From a virus (Duplodnaviria; Caudoviricetes): a stretch of 64,000 nucleotides of DNA. Where the stretch lies: positions 1 through 64,000 of IMG/VR virus record IMGVR_UViG_3300021256_000085. One strand, 5' to 3'. The translations under genes and the position numbers were made by a program. This document shows, piece after piece, positions 7,712-31,249 of this stretch. The notes beneath the pieces are model-generated. The model saw nothing but the letters and a program-made list of their open reading frames with translations, did not search any database and was not told the DNA's origin. Numbering within the stretch: the first letter of the stretch is position 1; each line of letters starts with the position of its first letter.

Positions 7712-7750
7712 ATATAGTTTGAATTTTTAATGTTTTTGTACTATATTATT
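7705..7750 (+). promoter_or_regulatory. repeated early-type promoter element (ATATAGT form)
   Basis: AATATAGTTTGAATTTT...TACTATATT. Confidence 0.7.
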
Positions 7751-20891: not shown

Positions 20892-21527
20892 ATGAAAACT
20901 TTACAAAATTATATTTTTGAAGAATCTAAAACATTTGATTCCAAGGTTCCTACTAATATTTATAAAATTTGTGATCAATTAACCCGCCACGTTGATTATT
21001 CTAAACTTCAAGAGATTAATGATGATGATCCAAATAGGTTTGACAAATCAAAAGAAAATGAACAACAATTTATAGATAGTTTTACCAATTCAAATACTGA
21101 ATATAAAGCTTTAAGTACACAAGAATATTATGCATTGATTAATCCAAATTCAAAATGGGAAACCTTATCTGATAAAGAAAAGGCAGATTTTGATGCAAAA
21201 AATGGAGATATTATTATTCTTGATAAAAATGATAAACCTATTTGTTTTATAGATATTAAGATATCTAATACAATACATTTAGGAGCAATTTCTCTTGGTT
21301 CACTTGTCAATTTTAACTCAAATGGATATTATATTTGTGTTTCTAAAAAGAATCATATTCCAAAGTTTATATCACATGATGCATTGGTAGATGCCGTTAA
21401 GAATAATAAAGAATTATTATTCCCAGTAGTAAAAGGAAGAAAAAAGGGTTATCCTGTTACATGGGAAGGAGAAAACTTAACTTCCGAATATTTTATACCT
21501 GGTAAAAAATTAGCACAATTTAAATAA
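20892..21527 (+). CDS. putative PD-(D/E)xK nuclease with capsid-targeting-like leader
   Basis: N-terminus MKTLQNYIFE; GDIIILD-x7-FIDIK motif. Confidence 0.5.
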   Translation: MKTLQNYIFEESKTFDSKVPTNIYKICDQLTRHVDYSKLQEINDDDPNRFDKSKENEQQFIDSFTNSNTEYKALSTQEYYALINPNSKWETLSDKEKADFDAKNGDIIILDKNDKPICFIDIKISNTIHLGAISLGSLVNFNSNGYYICVSKKNHIPKFISHDALVDAVKNNKELLFPVVKGRKKGYPVTWEGENLTSEYFIPGKKLAQFK

Positions 21528-23136: not shown

Positions 23137-23169
23137 AAAGCCTCTCAAAATATTTTGGGAGGCTTTTTT
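23137..23169 (+). terminator. intrinsic terminator (repeat family)
   Basis: AAAGCCTCTCAAAATATTTTGGGAGGCTTTTTT. Confidence 0.85.
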
Positions 23170-23203: not shown

Positions 23204-23230
23204 CACTATATTATATATAAGAATTATTAA

Positions 23231-26200
23231 ATGATTTCTATAAGACAATATTTAACTGAAGGTAGAAGACCTAAACAAGAAGCGCAAAAGGTTATTGAAG
23301 GTACTAGTATTCTTGACAAAATAATGAATAATGAACAAGATAATGTCAAAGAATTTGTTCAAGAATTCATAAGACCTAATGGACCAACTATATATGCATT
23401 CACAACAGATAAAGTAGATTCAGCAGTTAAGGTTGGATATACAGATCAACACCCAGAGAAGCGTATTGAGCAATGGAGAGAAATATATGGTAAAGAGGAA
23501 GGTGAAGTTGTTCCTTTAGGATATTGGAGCTCAGAAGAATTTGATAAAGCCGGAGAACGTGTATTCTTTTGGGATCATGCTATTCATAAGAAATTACAAG
23601 GCAAAGGATATAAGCAATTATCACGAGATGAGTTTATGAATACTTTAACAGAAAAAGGTAAGCAACTTGTAGATATTCATTATTCTCGTGAATTCTTTTC
23701 TAAATATAAGAAATTATTACAAGGACAATTAAGTGATGAAGATAAAGAAGAATTATCTGCTCAATTATTAGAAGACTTAATTAATCAAATGAAGCTTAAT
23801 ATCAAAAATGGAACTGCAGATTTTAAGTTATATAAGTTTGATGAAGAAGGTAGAACTTCAGGTAAGCAAGCGGATAAACAATGGGGTTCTCCAGATACTT
23901 ACCAAAATACTGATTTACAAGAAAATGCTATTAAGAATGGTGTAGAAGCTATTAAAGAAGGTAAAAAGAATATATTGATGGCTGCTGTAATGAGATTTGG
24001 TAAGACTCATGCATCATATGAAATTATTAAAGAAGCAGGATTGAAAAGAGTTATCGTTTGTTCTGCTAAAGCTGATGTTAGAACTGCATGGAGAGAAGAT
24101 ATTAATCATGTTCATTTCTTTAAAGATTTTATATTTATAGAAGTACTTGGACCTAACAACTGGGATGTTACTTATTCTAAAGATGGTAAATCATTAGTTA
24201 CTGAACATGGTATACCAGATATTGAAGCTTTAGAAAAATCCGGTAAGACTATGATTTATTTCTTTACTTTACATGATTTAGGTGGCTCTGTAAAAGAATT
24301 GAAAGCAAAGCATAAGGGATTATTTGACAAGAATTTTGATATGATGATTGTTGATGAAACCCATTATGGATCTCATGCTAATACTTTTGGACAAGTTACC
24401 GGATTAGGAAGAAAGAAAATTGAAGACGATGATGAAGATAATGCACAATTAGAAGAAGAGCAAAAATTAGCTGAAGAATCAAAGAAAGTTATTGAATCAT
24501 TGAATGTAAAATATGATAGAGTTCTTCAAGTTTCTGGAACACCTTATTATATATTAGCTTCAAATGAAATGATTGATAAGGATGCCGCAATTATTTCTAA
24601 AGTTTCTTATACAGATATGCTAAATGCTCGTGATAAATGGGAAAAAGAACATAAAGGAGAAGATGAAAGTAATTCACCATATTTTGGAATACCTACATTA
24701 CATAAGATTGGCTTACGATTAAATAAGGAATGCCGTAAAATTATGGAAGAAGCAGGATATACTGATTCTATGACAGAATTATTCAAAGTCAATGGACAGA
24801 AATTTGTAAATGAGAAAGCCATACGAGGATTGATAAAAGGTATATTTGGAGATGGAAAGAGTAGTTCATTAGCATTCTTGAAGAATAAAGATGTGGATGG
24901 CAATAAAGTTTGTAAGCATACAATAATGGTATTACCTCGTGTTAAAGCATGCCGAGCTATGAAAGAGTTGTTGAATTCCATGATAGATACAAATGAACGT
25001 AAAGTATTTTGTATAGTAAACAATTGGGGTGGCATTACTGATGTGAAAGATGTAGATGACTTGAATAACCAATTAGAGAAATTAGATAGTGAAGGAAAGA
25101 AAAGTATTATATTGACTGTCAATCGATTTATGACTGGTGTATCTATGCCTTGTGTAGATAGTATGATATATTTAAAGAATGCAAGTTCACCACAAGAATA
25201 TGACCAGAATATATTTAGATTATGTACAAGAAGAGTAAAGAAAGTAAAGGATCCAGATAATGAAAGCAGATCTAAGAAAGTCAATATGAAAGATAACGTA
25301 TATTTGATTGACTTCAATATGAGTAATATGTTCAATATGGTTGCAAATAGTGCTCGTATGAAAGCTGCTGCTGAAGGTAATCCAACTACAAAACGAATCA
25401 AAGAATTTATGGAAGATGATCTTAAAGCTGTTCCAATATTTGCTGAAGATAAAGCTAGTTCAGAAATACTTGGAAAGATGCATAAGATAACTTCCAAAGA
25501 TATGATGGAACTATATACAAGATATAACAAGAACAAGAGTATATCTGATATAGTGAATGATGAAATTGATTTGTTTGGAGAATTATTCAAAGATAAAGAT
25601 TTCCAAGATATAATAGTTGGTATAAATATAGATGGTGACAAGAGTAAGATAACTGTTGGAGATAAAGATGAAAATGATGGAGAAACTATTGACAATATAC
25701 CAACAAGCAAAATTGACAAGAAACTAAAATCATTACAAGACAAGATTAAAGATTCTCGCATAACTGATAAAGATAAGAAAGAATTTGAGAGATTAACTAA
25801 AGAGAAATTCAAAGCTATTACTAAGAACTTATTATATTGTGACTTATGCTTAGATGAACCTTGTTTTGATATTGAGGGAATTATTGAGAAAGCTAAAAAG
25901 GATTCAGAATTCAAGAAAATGCTTCATGAGTTTAAGATTGAATTGTCGGATATAGAGAAAGTATATAAAGTGATGGACACTAATTATAAACAAGCTTACA
26001 ATTCTTTATTGACTAGAATGGCATTACTTGCACAAGACAAGAGCAAAGAAGGATATGATAAGTTTAGTAAAGCTCTTGAAGGATTAGGTAGACTTGGTCA
26101 ATCTGAAGTTGTAACACCGCCTGAAATTGTTGAGAAAATGATTAACAAACTTGATGATTCAGAATATCGAAAAGCAAAGAGCATATTACTGGTGAATGAG

Positions 26201-27340
26201 AAACAAGCAGAGTTTGCAATGGGATTAGTTAAGAAATTCGGTAAAGACATATTAAAGAAAGTTAAGATAGTTGCAAGTTCTGAAATTGGTAAACACTTAA
26301 CTAAAAAAATGTTGAAAAGCGTTATGAATTCTGACTATATTAATAATATTATACTAAATATAGAAGACACAGATGGCAATGGCTATTATGATGTCAAAGA
26401 TTTTTTACATATGAAGAATGAAGAAATTTTGAAAGAGAATGATGGAAAGAAATTTGATATAATTTTGTCTAACCCGCCCTATTCTAATACATTACATTTA
26501 CAATTTTTAGAAAAGTATTGCGAAATTGCAAAAAATATTATATCAATACAACCATGTGAATTTATTACAAGAACACATTTAAAGCCAACATATAAAAAAC
26601 AAAAAGAAAAATATAAAAATTCTATTGGTAAACATTTATATGATTTAGAAGTATTAAAAAAGAACCCATTTGATGCCGGCATAGACACAAATATTGGTAT
26701 ATATGTTCTTAATGAAACAGGAGGATTTAATTATGATAATTTTTATAAAGAATATGATAAACATTATTTAAATATTGAATCTAAATTTAATACAGGAATA
26801 ACATTTAATGAAAAATTAGAAAAATATGATAATCAAAAATATTTTGTTCCTATAAGAACAGATGGTATATATGAAAGATGGTGGACATTACAATTAATTA
26901 ATTATTTAGATATTATTGTTGATGGAAAAGTTTATTCTGGTGATTATAAAGGATTAACAATTTCGGAAGCAAGAAAAAAGAATCCGCATGAAAACCCTAG
27001 AAATTCTGATAGAACAACAATGGGTGTTTCATTTAATTCATTAGAAGAGGCAATCAATTGTAGAGATTCTTTAAAAACAGAAGCATATATGTTTATAATT
27101 GCTTTATTTAAAACTACACGAAAGAATCCATTAAATAAAATACCTTTCTTAAATTATAAAAATCATTTATCTAATAATGATATATTTGATTTATTTGATA
27201 TTAATAATGATTTAAGAAAAGATATTATAAAAGAAATGCAACCATTTATGAGTAAATCATCAATGAATGGTTCAGAAATAGGAAAAACATTAATAAATAT
27301 TCAAAAAAAATATTTAGAAGAATTAAATAAAAATAATTGA
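23231..27340 (+). CDS. single-chain restriction-modification-like enzyme: T5orf172/GIY-YIG-like nuclease + SF2 (ResIII-like) helicase + Eco57I-like N6-adenine MTase/TRD
   Basis: TIYAF..VKVGYT..PEKRIEQ; MRFGKT, IVDETH, SGTP, QNIFRLCTR; EVVTPPEIV; FDIILSNPPY; N-terminus MISIRQYLTE. Confidence 0.85.
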   Translation: MISIRQYLTEGRRPKQEAQKVIEGTSILDKIMNNEQDNVKEFVQEFIRPNGPTIYAFTTDKVDSAVKVGYTDQHPEKRIEQWREIYGKEEGEVVPLGYWSSEEFDKAGERVFFWDHAIHKKLQGKGYKQLSRDEFMNTLTEKGKQLVDIHYSREFFSKYKKLLQGQLSDEDKEELSAQLLEDLINQMKLNIKNGTADFKLYKFDEEGRTSGKQADKQWGSPDTYQNTDLQENAIKNGVEAIKEGKKNILMAAVMRFGKTHASYEIIKEAGLKRVIVCSAKADVRTAWREDINHVHFFKDFIFIEVLGPNNWDVTYSKDGKSLVTEHGIPDIEALEKSGKTMIYFFTLHDLGGSVKELKAKHKGLFDKNFDMMIVDETHYGSHANTFGQVTGLGRKKIEDDDEDNAQLEEEQKLAEESKKVIESLNVKYDRVLQVSGTPYYILASNEMIDKDAAIISKVSYTDMLNARDKWEKEHKGEDESNSPYFGIPTLHKIGLRLNKECRKIMEEAGYTDSMTELFKVNGQKFVNEKAIRGLIKGIFGDGKSSSLAFLKNKDVDGNKVCKHTIMVLPRVKACRAMKELLNSMIDTNERKVFCIVNNWGGITDVKDVDDLNNQLEKLDSEGKKSIILTVNRFMTGVSMPCVDSMIYLKNASSPQEYDQNIFRLCTRRVKKVKDPDNESRSKKVNMKDNVYLIDFNMSNMFNMVANSARMKAAAEGNPTTKRIKEFMEDDLKAVPIFAEDKASSEILGKMHKITSKDMMELYTRYNKNKSISDIVNDEIDLFGELFKDKDFQDIIVGINIDGDKSKITVGDKDENDGETIDNIPTSKIDKKLKSLQDKIKDSRITDKDKKEFERLTKEKFKAITKNLLYCDLCLDEPCFDIEGIIEKAKKDSEFKKMLHEFKIELSDIEKVYKVMDTNYKQAYNSLLTRMALLAQDKSKEGYDKFSKALEGLGRLGQSEVVTPPEIVEKMINKLDDSEYRKAKSILLVNEKQAEFAMGLVKKFGKDILKKVKIVASSEIGKHLTKKMLKSVMNSDYINNIILNIEDTDGNGYYDVKDFLHMKNEEILKENDGKKFDIILSNPPYSNTLHLQFLEKYCEIAKNIISIQPCEFITRTHLKPTYKKQKEKYKNSIGKHLYDLEVLKKNPFDAGIDTNIGIYVLNETGGFNYDNFYKEYDKHYLNIESKFNTGITFNEKLEKYDNQKYFVPIRTDGIYERWWTLQLINYLDIIVDGKVYSGDYKGLTISEARKKNPHENPRNSDRTTMGVSFNSLEEAINCRDSLKTEAYMFIIALFKTTRKNPLNKIPFLNYKNHLSNNDIFDLFDINNDLRKDIIKEMQPFMSKSSMNGSEIGKTLINIQKKYLEELNKNN

Positions 27341-27345
27341 TTTTT

Positions 27346-27560
27346 ATTGCGTTATTTCAAAGAAAAATATTATTATTAATTATAAAGGTTTAATAATATT
27401 TGGAGTAACGCACAAATTAAAAACCAATTGAATTTAGATATAATTAGAAAACAATTATATATTTAGGGTATTTAATAATTTTTGGTTGTGCGTTACTTTA
27501 GACCAAATATTTATTAGATACCTTTTTAATTTAATAAATATATCTCATATAGTAACGCAT
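27346..27560. promoter_or_regulatory. nested inverted-repeat / long hairpin leader upstream of HNH gene
   Basis: TGCGTTA at 27348 and 27489, TAACGCA at 27406 and 27553; arms 27384-27416 and 27486-27526 are largely complementary. Confidence 0.6.
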
Positions 27561-28187
27561 ATGATTAATAAAGGAAGTGTAAATTTATATTGTAATGGAG
27601 ACATTACATTAATTGAAAATTATTATGAAGCAATAAACGATTCTAATGAAACTTGGATATGTCACCATAAATTAGAAATTGAATTGCAATTATTTTCTTA
27701 TGAATTAATTAAGAAAAATTTATATTTTAATAGACCTCCAGAAGAATTGATGTTTATTAAAAGAAATGACCACATGAAATTACATGCTTCAAAACATAAT
27801 TCATTTAAAAACAAACATCATACACAAGAAACAAAAAATAAAATTAATAATACAAAGTTAAAAAATGGAACATGGCCATCTGGAGAAAAAAATCCAATGT
27901 ATAAACATGTTTGGACAGAAGAAGAATTAGAACATTTAAAACAAGGAGCATTAAATAGAGATAATACAAATATAGGTAAATATGAAAGGACAGAAGAAAT
28001 AAATAATAAAATGTCTAAATCACTTAAAGGTAAAATGGCTGGAGAAAAAAATCCAATGTACGGTATTCGAGGAAAAGACAACCCAAATTATGGATTACAT
28101 TGGTATACTGATGGAATTAATTCGATTAAAGCAAGAGAATGTCCTGAAGGATTTAAACCAGGACGAATATATGCATTAAAAAAATAA
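27561..28187 (+). mobile_element. free-standing HNH homing endonuclease with NUMOD-like repeats
   Basis: WICHHKLE...NRPPEELMFI..NDHMKLH; KHHTQETKNKI; GEKNPMY x2; NPNYG. Confidence 0.8.
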
Positions 28188-28227
28188 TTAAAACTTACTA
28201 TATTAAATATATAATAATTTGAAAAGT

Positions 28228-28713
28228 ATGAATTTGACAGATTTTAATATACAGAAATTTATAGATATAGATTACGCAACAGAAGATCGTAAATCTCGCC
28301 GAAAGGGCTCAGGAGGGACTCAAGAATTTTTTACGCCTTATAGTATTGTAAAAAAGATGTGTGATAAAGTTCCTGAAGAAGATTGGCAAGATCCTACGAA
28401 ATTATTTTGTGAACCATGTTTCGGAAATGGAAATTTTGTATTGGCTATTATTTATTATAGAATTTTAAATGGTATAGACTGGAAAACGGCATTAGAAACT
28501 TGTTATGGTGTAGAACTTTGTGAAGATAACGTTTACGAAACACATGGAAGAATCATTAAGCTTTTTGATGCATTAGGAATAGATTATGATGAAGATGTAG
28601 CTATGGACATAATGCTTCGTAATCTTGTTTGTCATGATTTTTTTAAATGGAATTTCGAAGAATGGCGGCCAATGACTGAAGAAGAAATCAAACAAAGCAA
28701 GAAAAAGAAATGA
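28228..28713 (+). CDS. short DNA methyltransferase SAM-binding subunit (motifs X, I-III; no NPPY)
   Basis: QEFFTPYSIV; FCEPCFGNGNF; CYGVEL; LVCHDFF. Confidence 0.75.
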   Translation: MNLTDFNIQKFIDIDYATEDRKSRRKGSGGTQEFFTPYSIVKKMCDKVPEEDWQDPTKLFCEPCFGNGNFVLAIIYYRILNGIDWKTALETCYGVELCEDNVYETHGRIIKLFDALGIDYDEDVAMDIMLRNLVCHDFFKWNFEEWRPMTEEEIKQSKKKK

Positions 28714-28735: not shown

Positions 28736-28767
28736 AAAGCCTCTCAAATTATTTTGGGAGGCTTTTT
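28736..28767 (+). terminator. intrinsic terminator (repeat family)
   Basis: AAAGCCTCTCAAATTATTTTGGGAGGCTTTTT, differs from 23137 copy at one loop base. Confidence 0.85.
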
Positions 28768-28835
28768 AGTGTTTATAATCTTAAATATATATAAGAAAAT
28801 TAACTATATTATATTTAAAATAGATATGATGGTTT

Positions 28836-30952: not shown

Positions 30953-31249
30953 ATGAAAGAACAAGAACTTAGTGGCAAAATAAAAGAACTCAAAAGTTTA
31001 AGAGAAAAATATCGGTATTTTCAAGTTGGTATTGATACTATAAAAAAAGAATTTTTAAATCCTCCTTATGACTATCCAAATCTTGACAGAGACATTTGGG
31101 AAAAACAAACAATAGAAGAAATAAAATCTAGAGGGCAAGTATTAAAGGATCTTGAAGAACAAATAAGAGAAGTAAAGAAACATATCAAGAAACTAAATAA
31201 AGAACAAAATGAGAGAAATAATACCAAACAATTTAGAGCAGGTAATTGA
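30953..31249 (+). CDS. coiled-coil hypothetical
   Basis: ORF in run. Confidence 0.6.
   Translation: MKEQELSGKIKELKSLREKYRYFQVGIDTIKKEFLNPPYDYPNLDRDIWEKQTIEEIKSRGQVLKDLEEQIREVKKHIKKLNKEQNERNNTKQFRAGN

Follow-up and report, generated by a model that had tools for sequence, protein, structure and literature searches.

The question raised by this locus is how many gene products make up the DNA methylase of a phage-borne, restriction-enzyme-like machine. Within the 64,000-nucleotide stretch analyzed here (the window), which derives from a Lak-like giant phage of the gut or rumen, a large gene (23231-27340, + strand) encodes a 1369-residue protein (P0001) predicted to carry a nuclease, a DNA motor and a DNA methylase on a single chain, as a restriction enzyme might. 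A small gene located downstream encodes a protein (P0002) with the motifs of half a methylase. In our favored reading, to which we assign a probability of roughly 0.58, the two genes constitute a restriction-modification-type module in which the small subunit supplies or enables cofactor binding and the large protein is probably packaged. A literature search retrieved no biochemical study of such a nuclease-motor-methylase protein paired with a half-methylase.

Domain order of the large protein

The large gene was divided into the following features:

23231-23260, + strand: N-terminal leader MISIRQYLTE (residues 1-10), similar to T4 capsid-targeting sequences and ending in L-T-E (ortholog conservation)
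23372-23710, + strand: T5orf172/GIY-YIG-like nuclease domain, residues ~48-160 (invariant residues, Pfam matches of orthologs)
23906-25330, + strand: SF2 helicase-like ATPase, residues ~226-700 (Pfam ResIII, invariant motifs)
25331-26080, + strand: linker/coupler region, residues ~701-950 (by position only, as in Type ISP enzymes)
26081-26758, + strand: gamma-class N6-adenine methylase domain, residues ~951-1176 (AF2 model, fold search, motif columns)
26759-27340, + strand: hypervariable C-terminal target-recognition region, residues ~1177-1369, and stop codon (identity profile, alignments)

The predicted succession of nuclease, SF2 motor, coupler, gamma-class N6-adenine methylase and fast-evolving recognition domain is that of the Type ISP restriction enzymes (PMC4666363), and bears out a preliminary description of the locus as encoding an RM-like machine. 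LlaGI and LlaBIII (PDB 5ffj and 4xqk) display the same order in one chain. However, their nuclease is of the Mrr/PD-(D/E)xK type, whereas a T5orf172/GIY-YIG-type nuclease would occupy the Mrr slot here. Other differences from these enzymes are the missing glycine loop in methylase motif I, the constant presence of a distinct small gene for a front half, the location on a phage genome and the leader at the N-terminus. A phmmer search of the large protein against PDB chains gave no sequence-level match.

Of the Pfam families expected from the preliminary description, ResIII matches the large protein itself (residues 227-389, E 1e-9), while neither T5orf172 nor Eco57I does at E<=0.1; these two are recovered in orthologs that pass the respective cut-offs (P0240 and P0224 for T5orf172, P0199 and P0204 for Eco57I). 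In the proposed T5orf172/GIY-YIG-like domain, residues Y55, G69-Y70-T71, R78, H116, H119 and E154 are invariant in 37 orthologs, and the top three VIA matches of the N-terminal model are the GIY-YIG nucleases HIGLE and Slx1, with weak Z scores of 3.1-3.7. The SF2 helicase assignment holds: motifs I, II and III (MRFGKT, residues 254-259; DETH, 375-378; SGTP, 435-438) and the QxxFRLCTR motif are invariant among the 37 orthologs, some of which also match Helicase_C weakly. The linker/coupler region has no family match and a mean identity of 52%. The C-terminal region falls to 21.8% mean identity, versus 62-68% in the catalytic domains, and aligns to the target-recognition domain of CamA in the fold search and to the middle part of permuted single-chain methylases.

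An N6A methylase, an SF2 helicase and a T5orf172 protein also occur together in the DnmA(YeeA)-YeeB-YeeC clusters of B. subtilis and Vibrio crassostreae, which associate with defence islands and are anti-phage in V. crassostreae (PMC9973331). These clusters, likened here to the large protein by their activities, consist of three separate proteins in another order, and their MmeI-like methylase is self-contained, without a half-methylase partner.

The small protein and the methylase domain

28228-28713, + strand: small protein, 161 residues, the canonical motif X/I/II/III half of an N6-adenine methylase (motifs, homologs)

The start of the small gene was set at the ATG at 28228 by comparison with homologs. 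As described before, its product contains motifs X (EFFTP), I (EPCFGNGNF), II (YGVEL..DN) and III (VCHDFF) and lacks NPPY. Residues T39, P40, G69 and N104 (the last in motif II) do not vary among 50 homologs, nor does motif I across the family, and 952 relatives were found, at 68-100% identity among the matches listed (120 of 952). The methylase domain of the large protein has its own motif X (EVVTP), motif III (DFL) and motif IV (NPPY, residues 1081-1084), which, with the complete gamma-class fold of the AF2 model, upholds its assignment as an N6-adenine methylase. Its motif I, ILLVNEKQAEF, is non-canonical and has no G-x-G; hhalign places LLVNEKQAEF opposite P-x-x-G-x-G-N-F of the small-protein family, as if the glycine-rich cofactor loop had been lost from this front half. 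The motif had been called degenerate, which is correct as to its form; yet ILLVNEKxxEF is invariant in the 37 orthologs and is not decaying.

Homology and synteny support a two-subunit methylase formed by the large and small proteins. Fused, permuted single-chain homologs are colinear with residues 1074-1325 of the large protein followed by the small one: the large protein from NPPY onward corresponds to their N-terminal part and the small protein to their C-terminal part. In the profile phrog_11371, which represents permuted methylases of T4-like phages, positions 3-257 are matched by residues 1074-1331 of the large protein and positions 288-368 by residues 33-118 of the small protein. A 384-residue methylase of Aeromonas phage vB_AdhaM_G2 and the metagenomic P0298 are likewise colinear with both (1.9e-13 for the large, 1.2e-23 for the small protein). 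P0310, which has the canonical order, shares 41% identity with the small protein and only 23% with the large protein's own front half. All eight contexts examined have the small gene downstream of the large one, with an 8-nt overlap in three of them (L010-L012). Split pairs also occur in P-SSM2, as a clean two-gene split of an N6A methylase (PSSM2_036/037, 193 and 132 residues), and in Vibrio phage PVA23 (a 552-residue GIY-YIG-NPPY protein and one of 162 residues), and ACG-2014f has a three-gene version. These permuted and split forms fit fission-and-fusion and duplication as routes to methylase permutation (PMC3320104). Unlike in the T4-like permuted and split methylases, the back half here keeps its own divergent front half, fused to motor and nuclease, so that a single back half is matched by two front halves in the module.

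This retained front half qualifies the earlier proposal that the two proteins form one methylase. The AF2 model of residues 940-1176 is a complete methylase domain (pLDDT 88, above 90 in the internal front half), and the model thus does not show a protein simply waiting for its absent half; a second front half would have no obvious docking place. Over its residues 1-237, the model gives VIA Z scores of 15-17 to known methylases, with LlaGI (5ffj, Z 16.5) and LlaBIII (4xqk, Z 15.9) tied with HsdM, DrdV, CamA and TaqI.

Alternatively, the large protein could methylate on its own, its motif I being unusual yet functional, and the small protein, otherwise employed, would only travel along: as a regulator, as a sensor or buffer of the cofactor, or as a subunit pairing with itself or another partner. 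We regard this as unlikely, though worth weighing against the two-subunit reading. It draws on the fold predicted without the small protein and on the invariance or near-invariance of ILLVNEKxxEF, T962-P963, D1057-F-L and NPPY; the invariant motif I together with intact motifs X, III and IV could form a functional cofactor site. The motif I of M.TaqI-type enzymes also deviates from a strict G-x-G-x-G. The NPPY protein of ACG-2014f has a short front segment of its own (IIGDPSG) besides a small partner, and bacterial genomes contain related front-half proteins of ~210-260 residues without an NPPY neighbor. However, the permuted homologs join a small-type front half to a large-type back half as one enzyme, the NPPY protein of P-SSM2 has nothing ahead of that motif and so cannot be a whole methylase by itself, and the constant synteny, with its overlaps, argues against a mere fellow traveler. 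Moreover, the motif II acid of the large protein (E or D in 25 of 37) is lost in 12 of 37 orthologs, 11 of which have M, Q or S in its place.

In the favored two-subunit reading, the small protein would be a canonical front half from the same methylase lineage that binds the cofactor and is encoded on its own, associating with the methylase module of the large protein and supplying or enabling S-adenosylmethionine binding, so that methylation would need both products.

Gene spacing, promoter-like boxes and the leader

23137-23166, + strand: terminator-like hairpin, upstream cassette boundary (13-pair stem and T run)
23205-23213, + strand: ACTATATTA 9-mer, 26 nt before the large-gene ATG (9-mer count)
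27561-28187, + strand: free-standing HNH/NUMOD3 homing-endonuclease gene, 208 residues, an insertion (Pfam NUMOD3; CHH...NDHMKLH motif)
28197-28205, + strand: ACTATATTA 9-mer, 31 nt before the small-gene ATG (9-mer count)
28736-28765, + strand: terminator-like hairpin, downstream cassette boundary (the sole terminator-like site between 23167 and 29000)

The present spacing of the two genes is a by-product of the insertion of a homing-endonuclease gene after the stop codon of the large gene. This gene also occurs in a 98%-identical contig and is absent from L007 and L010-L012; homology to L007 resumes at 28179, ~840 bp past the large-gene stop (27340) and about at the end of the inserted gene. 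It was missing from the preliminary description. In relatives without it, the large and small genes overlap by 8 nt or sit 41 bp apart. Ancestrally they would have formed a single operon, whose 41-bp spacer the endonuclease gene entered.

The leader of the large protein, noted before, is a conserved feature: the pattern M-x-S/N-[IL]-x-x-[FY]-[IL]-x-E is kept in most of the 37 orthologs, E10 is invariant, and residues 1-25 have pLDDT values below 50. It was not seen at the predicted N-terminus of the Lak-C1 ortholog, and the small protein has none. The gp21 protease of T4 cuts propeptides after Glu at ITE/LTE (I/L-x-E) motifs (PMC5694885). Capsid loading of the large protein is plausible given this conserved leader, the 11 contig genes that share the pattern (0.69 expected) and the T4 gp21-type protease (Peptidase_S77) encoded by Lak relatives; the protein would then probably be a late product that enters the head. 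The in-frame TAG codons of the Lak-C1 and Lak-A2 large genes, detailed below, count in favor of this reading too. On the other side, the 85.7-kb contig (30% complete by CheckV) yielded neither a prohead protease nor a capsid gene. DarB of phage P1 unites methylase and helicase domains and, unlike the large protein, has no nuclease domain. DarB is a packaged 250-kDa anti-restriction protein with a packaging signal at its N-terminus (PMC9024508). Like DarB, the T4 internal proteins and Alt are large or enzymatic proteins that reach the head by such a signal and leave it together with the DNA. They have no detected sequence similarity to the large protein, whose packaging is predicted; a tblastn search with it against 50,697 phage records matched six, P1 and T4 not among them.

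A stronger version, in which the packaged and injected large protein becomes an active methylase in the next cell only once an early promoter yields the small subunit, seems improbable to us. The leader confined to the large protein, the parallel with DarB and the ACTATATTA box at 28197, correctly reported upstream of the small gene, are in its favor, as are the 1.5-2 kb separating the two genes in Lak-C1 and Lak-A2, where in-frame TAG codons are abundant only in the large gene (29 and 27, respectively, versus zero in the 148-residue form of the small gene). However, the supposed contrast between early and late promoters is not borne out: ACTATATTA precedes the large gene as well, and the 70 nt before position 23231 contain no exact TATAAATA. 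The 9-mer (17 copies in the window, 2.85 expected) also stands upstream of the next gene, at 28803, and is not conserved in L007, which reads ACTACGTTTA at the site homologous to that of the small gene. Sigma-70-like matches are at background (44 versus 46.5). No terminator was found between the two genes, and their overlap or 41-bp spacing in relatives, widened here by the insertion, further argues against gating by an early-made subunit.

Least probable of all is a non-methylating module that only recognizes sites for a motor-nuclease degrading host or competitor DNA or acting in recombination, with the small gene a separate orphan: the non-canonical motif I, the variable motif II acid, the recombination role proposed for the T5orf172 family in jumbo phages (PMC7824862) and a B. 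subtilis DnmA-YeeB-YeeC without RM or anti-phage activity (PMC9973331) would fit it, but the invariance of NPPY and motif III, the high conservation of the small protein and the hypervariable recognition domain, which selection on specificity would produce, speak against it. At the cassette boundaries, a 31-nt copy of the upstream hairpin (30 of 31 positions identical) recurs only at 28737-28767.

Cassette organization and genomic setting

The cassette comprises three genes on the plus strand:

23231-27340 (+), large gene, encoding the 1369-aa nuclease-helicase-methylase chain P0001
27561-28187 (+), gene of a 208-aa HNH/NUMOD3 homing endonuclease (HEG)
28228-28713 (+), small gene, encoding the methylase front half P0002

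The length of the large gene's product agrees with the preliminary description. Comparison with homologs places the start of P0002 at the ATG at 28228, giving 161 aa. The window, with a G+C content of about 27%, covers the initial 64 kb of a source contig that is 85.7 kb long and has a CheckV completeness of 30%. The contig uses the standard genetic code; stop-codon recoding was rejected, given the long ORFs under this code and TAG as terminator in only 6 of 113, and recoding is limited to the orthologs of Lak-A2 and Lak-C1. The nearest named relatives of both proteins are those of the Prevotella Lak megaphages, with 37% identity over 83% of the length for P0001 and its Lak ortholog, and 54-56% for P0002 and its Lak homologs. 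Much closer relatives come from metagenome contigs, the longest of which has 472 kb. A megablast search of the cassette region against phage records returned no DNA match, and the members of the large family at NCBI carry no informative names.

In all contexts compared (n=8), the small gene is located downstream of the large one.

Table. Arrangement of the large and small genes in the contexts compared.
Window: large, HEG, small; the 98%-identical contig is arranged likewise and shares the insertion
L007 (relative locus): large, small, 41-bp gap, HEG-free
L010-L012 (relative loci): large and small overlapping by 8 nt, HEG-free
L020 (relative locus): 97-aa ORF between large and small
L022 (relative locus): small domain with a 135-aa N-terminal extension
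Lak-C1, Lak-A2: large and small 1.5-2 kb apart

The ORF between the two genes matches NUMOD3 (1.1e-4) and contains a readable HNH motif. Its HNH and NUMOD elements, its intergenic position and its presence or absence among relatives (the 98%-identical contig has it, L007 and L010-L012 lack it) identify it as a free-standing homing endonuclease. Homology to the HEG-free locus L007 resumes at 28179, just past the HEG gene. About 840 bp have therefore been inserted between the stop codon of the large gene and a conserved 41-bp spacer, and the present 0.9-kb separation of the two genes is thus secondary. The idea that the homing endonuclease split one gene in two was discarded, as every HEG-free relative has a separate small gene and the HEG occupies the spacer. 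The TGCGTTA/TAACGCA repeats pointed out earlier are located in the AT-rich stretch at 27346-27563, which separates the stop codon of the large gene from the start of the HEG; this stretch is part of the inserted element, not of the ancestral spacer. In Lak-B4, the helicase fusion is absent and a 463-aa NPPY protein lies directly upstream of the small gene. On its opposite strand, Lak-A2 also has a relic (286 aa) that corresponds to the NPPY half and in which NAPY replaces NPPY.

Split, permuted and canonical forms of the methylase

As had been read from the sequence, the small protein ends after motifs X and I-III, without NPPY. Residues T39, P40, G69 and N104 are the same in all 50 homologs compared. 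P0002 has 952 near-length relatives, of which the 120 listed are at least 68% identical, and clustering at 50% identity divides the wider family into at least 1099 groups, almost all of 130-200 aa. Longer homologs join both halves in a single chain. In P0310 (480 aa; 41% identical to P0002, E 3e-25), NPPY comes immediately after the front half, the canonical order, while P0298, P0332 and P0353 begin with NPPY and end with the front half, the permuted order. Residues 2-283 of P0298 align with residues 1074-1325 of P0001 (1.9e-13), and residues 320-445 with residues 20-150 of P0002 (1.2e-23). Aeromonas phage vB_AdhaM_G2 has an annotated methylase of 384 aa that displays the same colinearity with P0001 and P0002, as does the PHROG profile phrog_11371. 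The back half (motifs IV-VIII and the recognition part) and the front half are thus colinear with a single-chain permuted form, which defines a split/permuted family whose stand-alone front halves are represented by the profiles phrog_21201 and phrog_4376. The family fits both textbook routes to circular permutation (PMC3320104), and the form made up of P0001 and P0002 looks like an intermediate in the process.

Split versions occur in other phages. Prochlorococcus phage P-SSM2 encodes a 193-aa protein beginning at NPPY and an overlapping 132-aa front half; P0001 has no significant match to P-SSM2 genes 035, 038 and 039. Vibrio phage PVA23 combines a 552-aa GIY-YIG-NPPY protein with an overlapping 162-aa front half. 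In hhalign comparisons of the small family with the single NPPY proteins of PVA23 and Lak-B4, an internal front half was not significant. The system of Synechococcus phage ACG-2014f (L019 2581-6150) consists of three adjacent genes, all annotated as hypothetical: a front half of 134 aa encoded by the first gene, a 691-aa protein whose helicase part matches residues 512-663 of P0001 (2.8e-12) and whose N-terminus, judged by eye, is T5orf172-like, and an NPPY protein of 337 aa whose short front segment reads IIGDPSG. The PVA23 pair (L004 3465-5148) lies directly upstream of 7-deazaguanine genes (QueD and QueC homologs), a neighborhood that hints at a link between this type of methylase and DNA hypermodification. 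A bacterial front-half subfamily of about 210-260 aa is present in Sphingomonadales, Limosilactobacillus, Saccharibacteria and others (L033-L037, L041, L044, L053 and L061); it has a conserved C-terminal extension and, in a scan of bacterial genomes, usually no NPPY gene upstream.

The large protein and its two candidate front halves

Type ISP enzymes are built in the order nuclease, SF2 ATPase, coupler, gamma N6-adenine methylase and recognition domain (PMC4666363), and P0001 has this domain order in its single chain. The nuclease, however, is of the Mrr-family PD-(D/E)xK type in Type ISP, whereas the N-terminus of P0001 is T5orf172/GIY-YIG-like. Likewise, the Type ISP methylase is self-contained with a canonical motif I, whereas P0001 has ILLVNEKxxEF at this position and the downstream gene encodes a canonical half of its own. 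Type ISP action involves ATP-driven translocation, with cleavage when enzymes from head-to-head sites collide. Among studied systems, the closest one that links a T5orf172 protein, an SF2 helicase and an N6-adenine methylase is DnmA-YeeB-YeeC (PMC9973331). A survey of jumbo phages (PMC7824862) mentions permuted EcoKI-like methylases and T5orf172 proteins, though not the large-small pair, and our literature search found no biochemical study of this pair.

The helicase motifs named in the preliminary description are present in P0001 and invariant in an alignment of 37 sequences, with a Pfam ResIII match at 1e-9. Of the other Pfam domains named there, T5orf172, family PF10544 of the GIY-YIG superfamily, and Eco57I have no match in P0001 itself at E≤0.1, and both are found in full-length orthologs with 46-50% identity: T5orf172 at the aligned position in P0240 (27 bits) and P0224 (25.9 bits; cut-off 20 bits), and Eco57I in P0199 and P0204 (25.9 and 26.2 bits; cut-off 25.3). 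In the N-terminal domain, I54-Y55, G69-Y70-T71, R78, H116/H119 and E154 are invariant in the 37 sequences and fit the GIY-YIG pattern, with the tyrosines of GIY...YIG, the arginine and the putative metal-binding glutamate as candidate catalytic residues. The AlphaFold model of this domain has a pLDDT of 78, and its best fold matches are the GIY-YIG nucleases HIGLE and Slx1, at weak scores (Z 3.1-3.7). A Foldseek search with the same model gave nothing at E≤0.001, and phmmer searches of P0001 and P0002 against PDB sequences gave nothing meaningful.

The AlphaFold model of residues 940-1369 is of higher confidence (pLDDT 88, pTM 0.81). Its residues 1-237 align with DrdV, Type I HsdM, LlaGI, LlaBIII, M.TaqI and MmeI at tied scores (Z 15-17), including LlaGI 5ffj (Z 16.5, rmsd 2.9, 208 aligned residues) and LlaBIII 4xqk (Z 15.9), and the match to CamA extends over the recognition part as well (313 aligned residues). 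As modeled, the methylase end is a complete gamma-class N6-adenine methylase fold, and the large protein is therefore predicted not to be missing a front half. The motif order X-I-II-III-IV with NPPY and the Rossmann-type fold are those of the gamma class; the large family lacks the glycine-rich motif I of this class and has its acidic motif II residue in only part of the sequences. Its motif I reads V-N-E-K-Q-[GA]-E-F, opposite P-x-x-G-x-G-N-F in the small family, and position 1018 in motif II is E in 24 of 37 sequences, D in one and another residue, mostly M, Q or S, in 12. Motifs X (T-P), III (D-F-L) and IV (N-P-P-Y) are invariant or nearly so. Within the motif I region, I985, L986, N989, K991, E994 and F995 are invariant in the 37 sequences, a conservation indicating that the non-canonical loop is under strong selection. 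The earlier characterization of this motif as degenerate is therefore only half right, since the loop is indeed non-canonical but is not decaying.

The pair thus presents a structural puzzle, with one back half and two front halves, the first attached, confidently folded and non-canonical, the second free and canonical. The small subunit may dock elsewhere on the large protein and enable cofactor use, or it may displace the internal front half; alternatively, the large protein, complete in the model, may work alone. On the sequence evidence, the cassette is best read as a Type ISP-like restriction-modification module whose methylase would work together with a cofactor-binding subunit encoded by another gene. 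Should the small protein be this subunit, the pair would represent a large, unstudied two-polypeptide way of building DNA adenine methylases, and canonical, permuted, split and "two front halves" forms would all be displayed by one family, making the permutation routes directly testable.

When a second NPPY partner was sought on the contig, the sole other NPPY (FLNPPYDYP) was in a 98-aa ORF at 30953-31249 of the window; with no other methylase motif, it is probably a chance occurrence. The last ~200 residues of the P0001 family have a mean identity of 21.8%, compared to 62-68% in the nuclease, the motor and the methylase front half. This hypervariable end looks like a specificity domain in an arms race, which would be one over DNA sites.

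Packaging, expression and a possible division of labor

A more specific reading, to which we assign about one chance in eight, is that, with the methylase split in two, modification and restriction take place at different times and in different places. The producing cell would have both subunits, and progeny DNA would be methylated at whichever site the hypervariable recognition domain specifies. The head would take up the large subunit alone, which bears the leader, so that the injected enzyme would be methylation-incompetent but motor- and nuclease-competent; it would cut unmethylated host, plasmid or rival-phage DNA and could not protect such DNA by methylating it. Head loading of the large protein through its leader would mean that giant phages of the gut and rumen inject a restriction-type motor nuclease along with their DNA, a new type of weapon or shield comparable to P1 Dar and the internal proteins of T4.

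The capsid-targeting sequence of T4 is an N-terminal pattern of about ten residues, M-K-x-x-x-x-F/Y-I-x-E, with an I/L-x-E protease site at its end. The N-terminus of P0001, MISIRQYLTE, is a leader of this type, closely resembling the targeting sequence of the T4 internal proteins, and fits M-x-S/N-[IL]-x-x-[FY]-[IL]-x-E. Most of the 37 orthologs retain this pattern, and E10 is invariant, although mean identity to P0001 across the leader and the following linker is only ~40%. On the contig, 11 genes, the large gene included, begin with the strict pattern, against 0.69 expected; the ten others start at 20892, 36237(-), 38087, 49334(-), 51219(-), 60593, 61299 and 61613 in the window and at 66125(-) and 70529(-) beyond it. 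In L022, the gene after the small-domain gene also has a leader-type start, MKSIEEYIKE. The leader is absent from P0002, and the cyanophage (ACG-2014f) homolog of the large protein is also without it, beginning directly with a seemingly nuclease-like domain. The final L-T-E of MISIRQYLTE corresponds to a cleavage motif of T4 gp21 (PMC5694885); a gp21-type protease (Peptidase_S77) is encoded by Lak-C1 and Lak-B4, with none seen on the 85.7-kb, 30%-complete contig. P1 DarB provides a precedent for the packaging of a protein this large (PMC9024508). Overall, we consider the odds of head loading of the large protein to be roughly even.

Different promoter classes, late for the large gene and early for the small one, had been proposed; the sequence lends them no support, the same 9-mer ACTATATTA being found before both genes. 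This 9-mer has 17 copies in the window against 2.85 expected (e.g. at 7740, 23205, 28197, 28803, 42073 and 45016), several of them 26-33 nt upstream of start codons, which makes it a candidate phage promoter element; it is not conserved at the homologous position of L007. The contrast between the two genes in Lak phages points in the opposite direction. The orthologs of the large gene in Lak-C1 (L001 4752-9068) and Lak-A2 (L002 4752-9071) contain 29 and 27 in-frame TAG codons, respectively, read as Gln, while the small gene is readable without TAG and the 155-aa gene upstream has none. If TAG-rich genes of recoded phages are translated late, the large protein would be a late product in these two phages.

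Only two terminator-like hairpins occur between 22600 and 29000, one at 23137-23166, before the upstream region of the large gene, and its copy at 28736-28765, just after the small gene (30 of 31 positions identical). They bracket the large-HEG-small cassette, and each is followed ~37 nt later by ACTATATTA. Copies of this 9-mer are found ahead of the large gene, of the small gene and of the gene after it. Upstream of the large gene, the gene content differs from that of the 98%-identical contig, which has a 183-aa DUF4468-like ORF and a 51-aa ORF there, and in L007 and L010 the cassette has entirely different neighbors. This arrangement suggests that the cassette moves between regulatory repeats.
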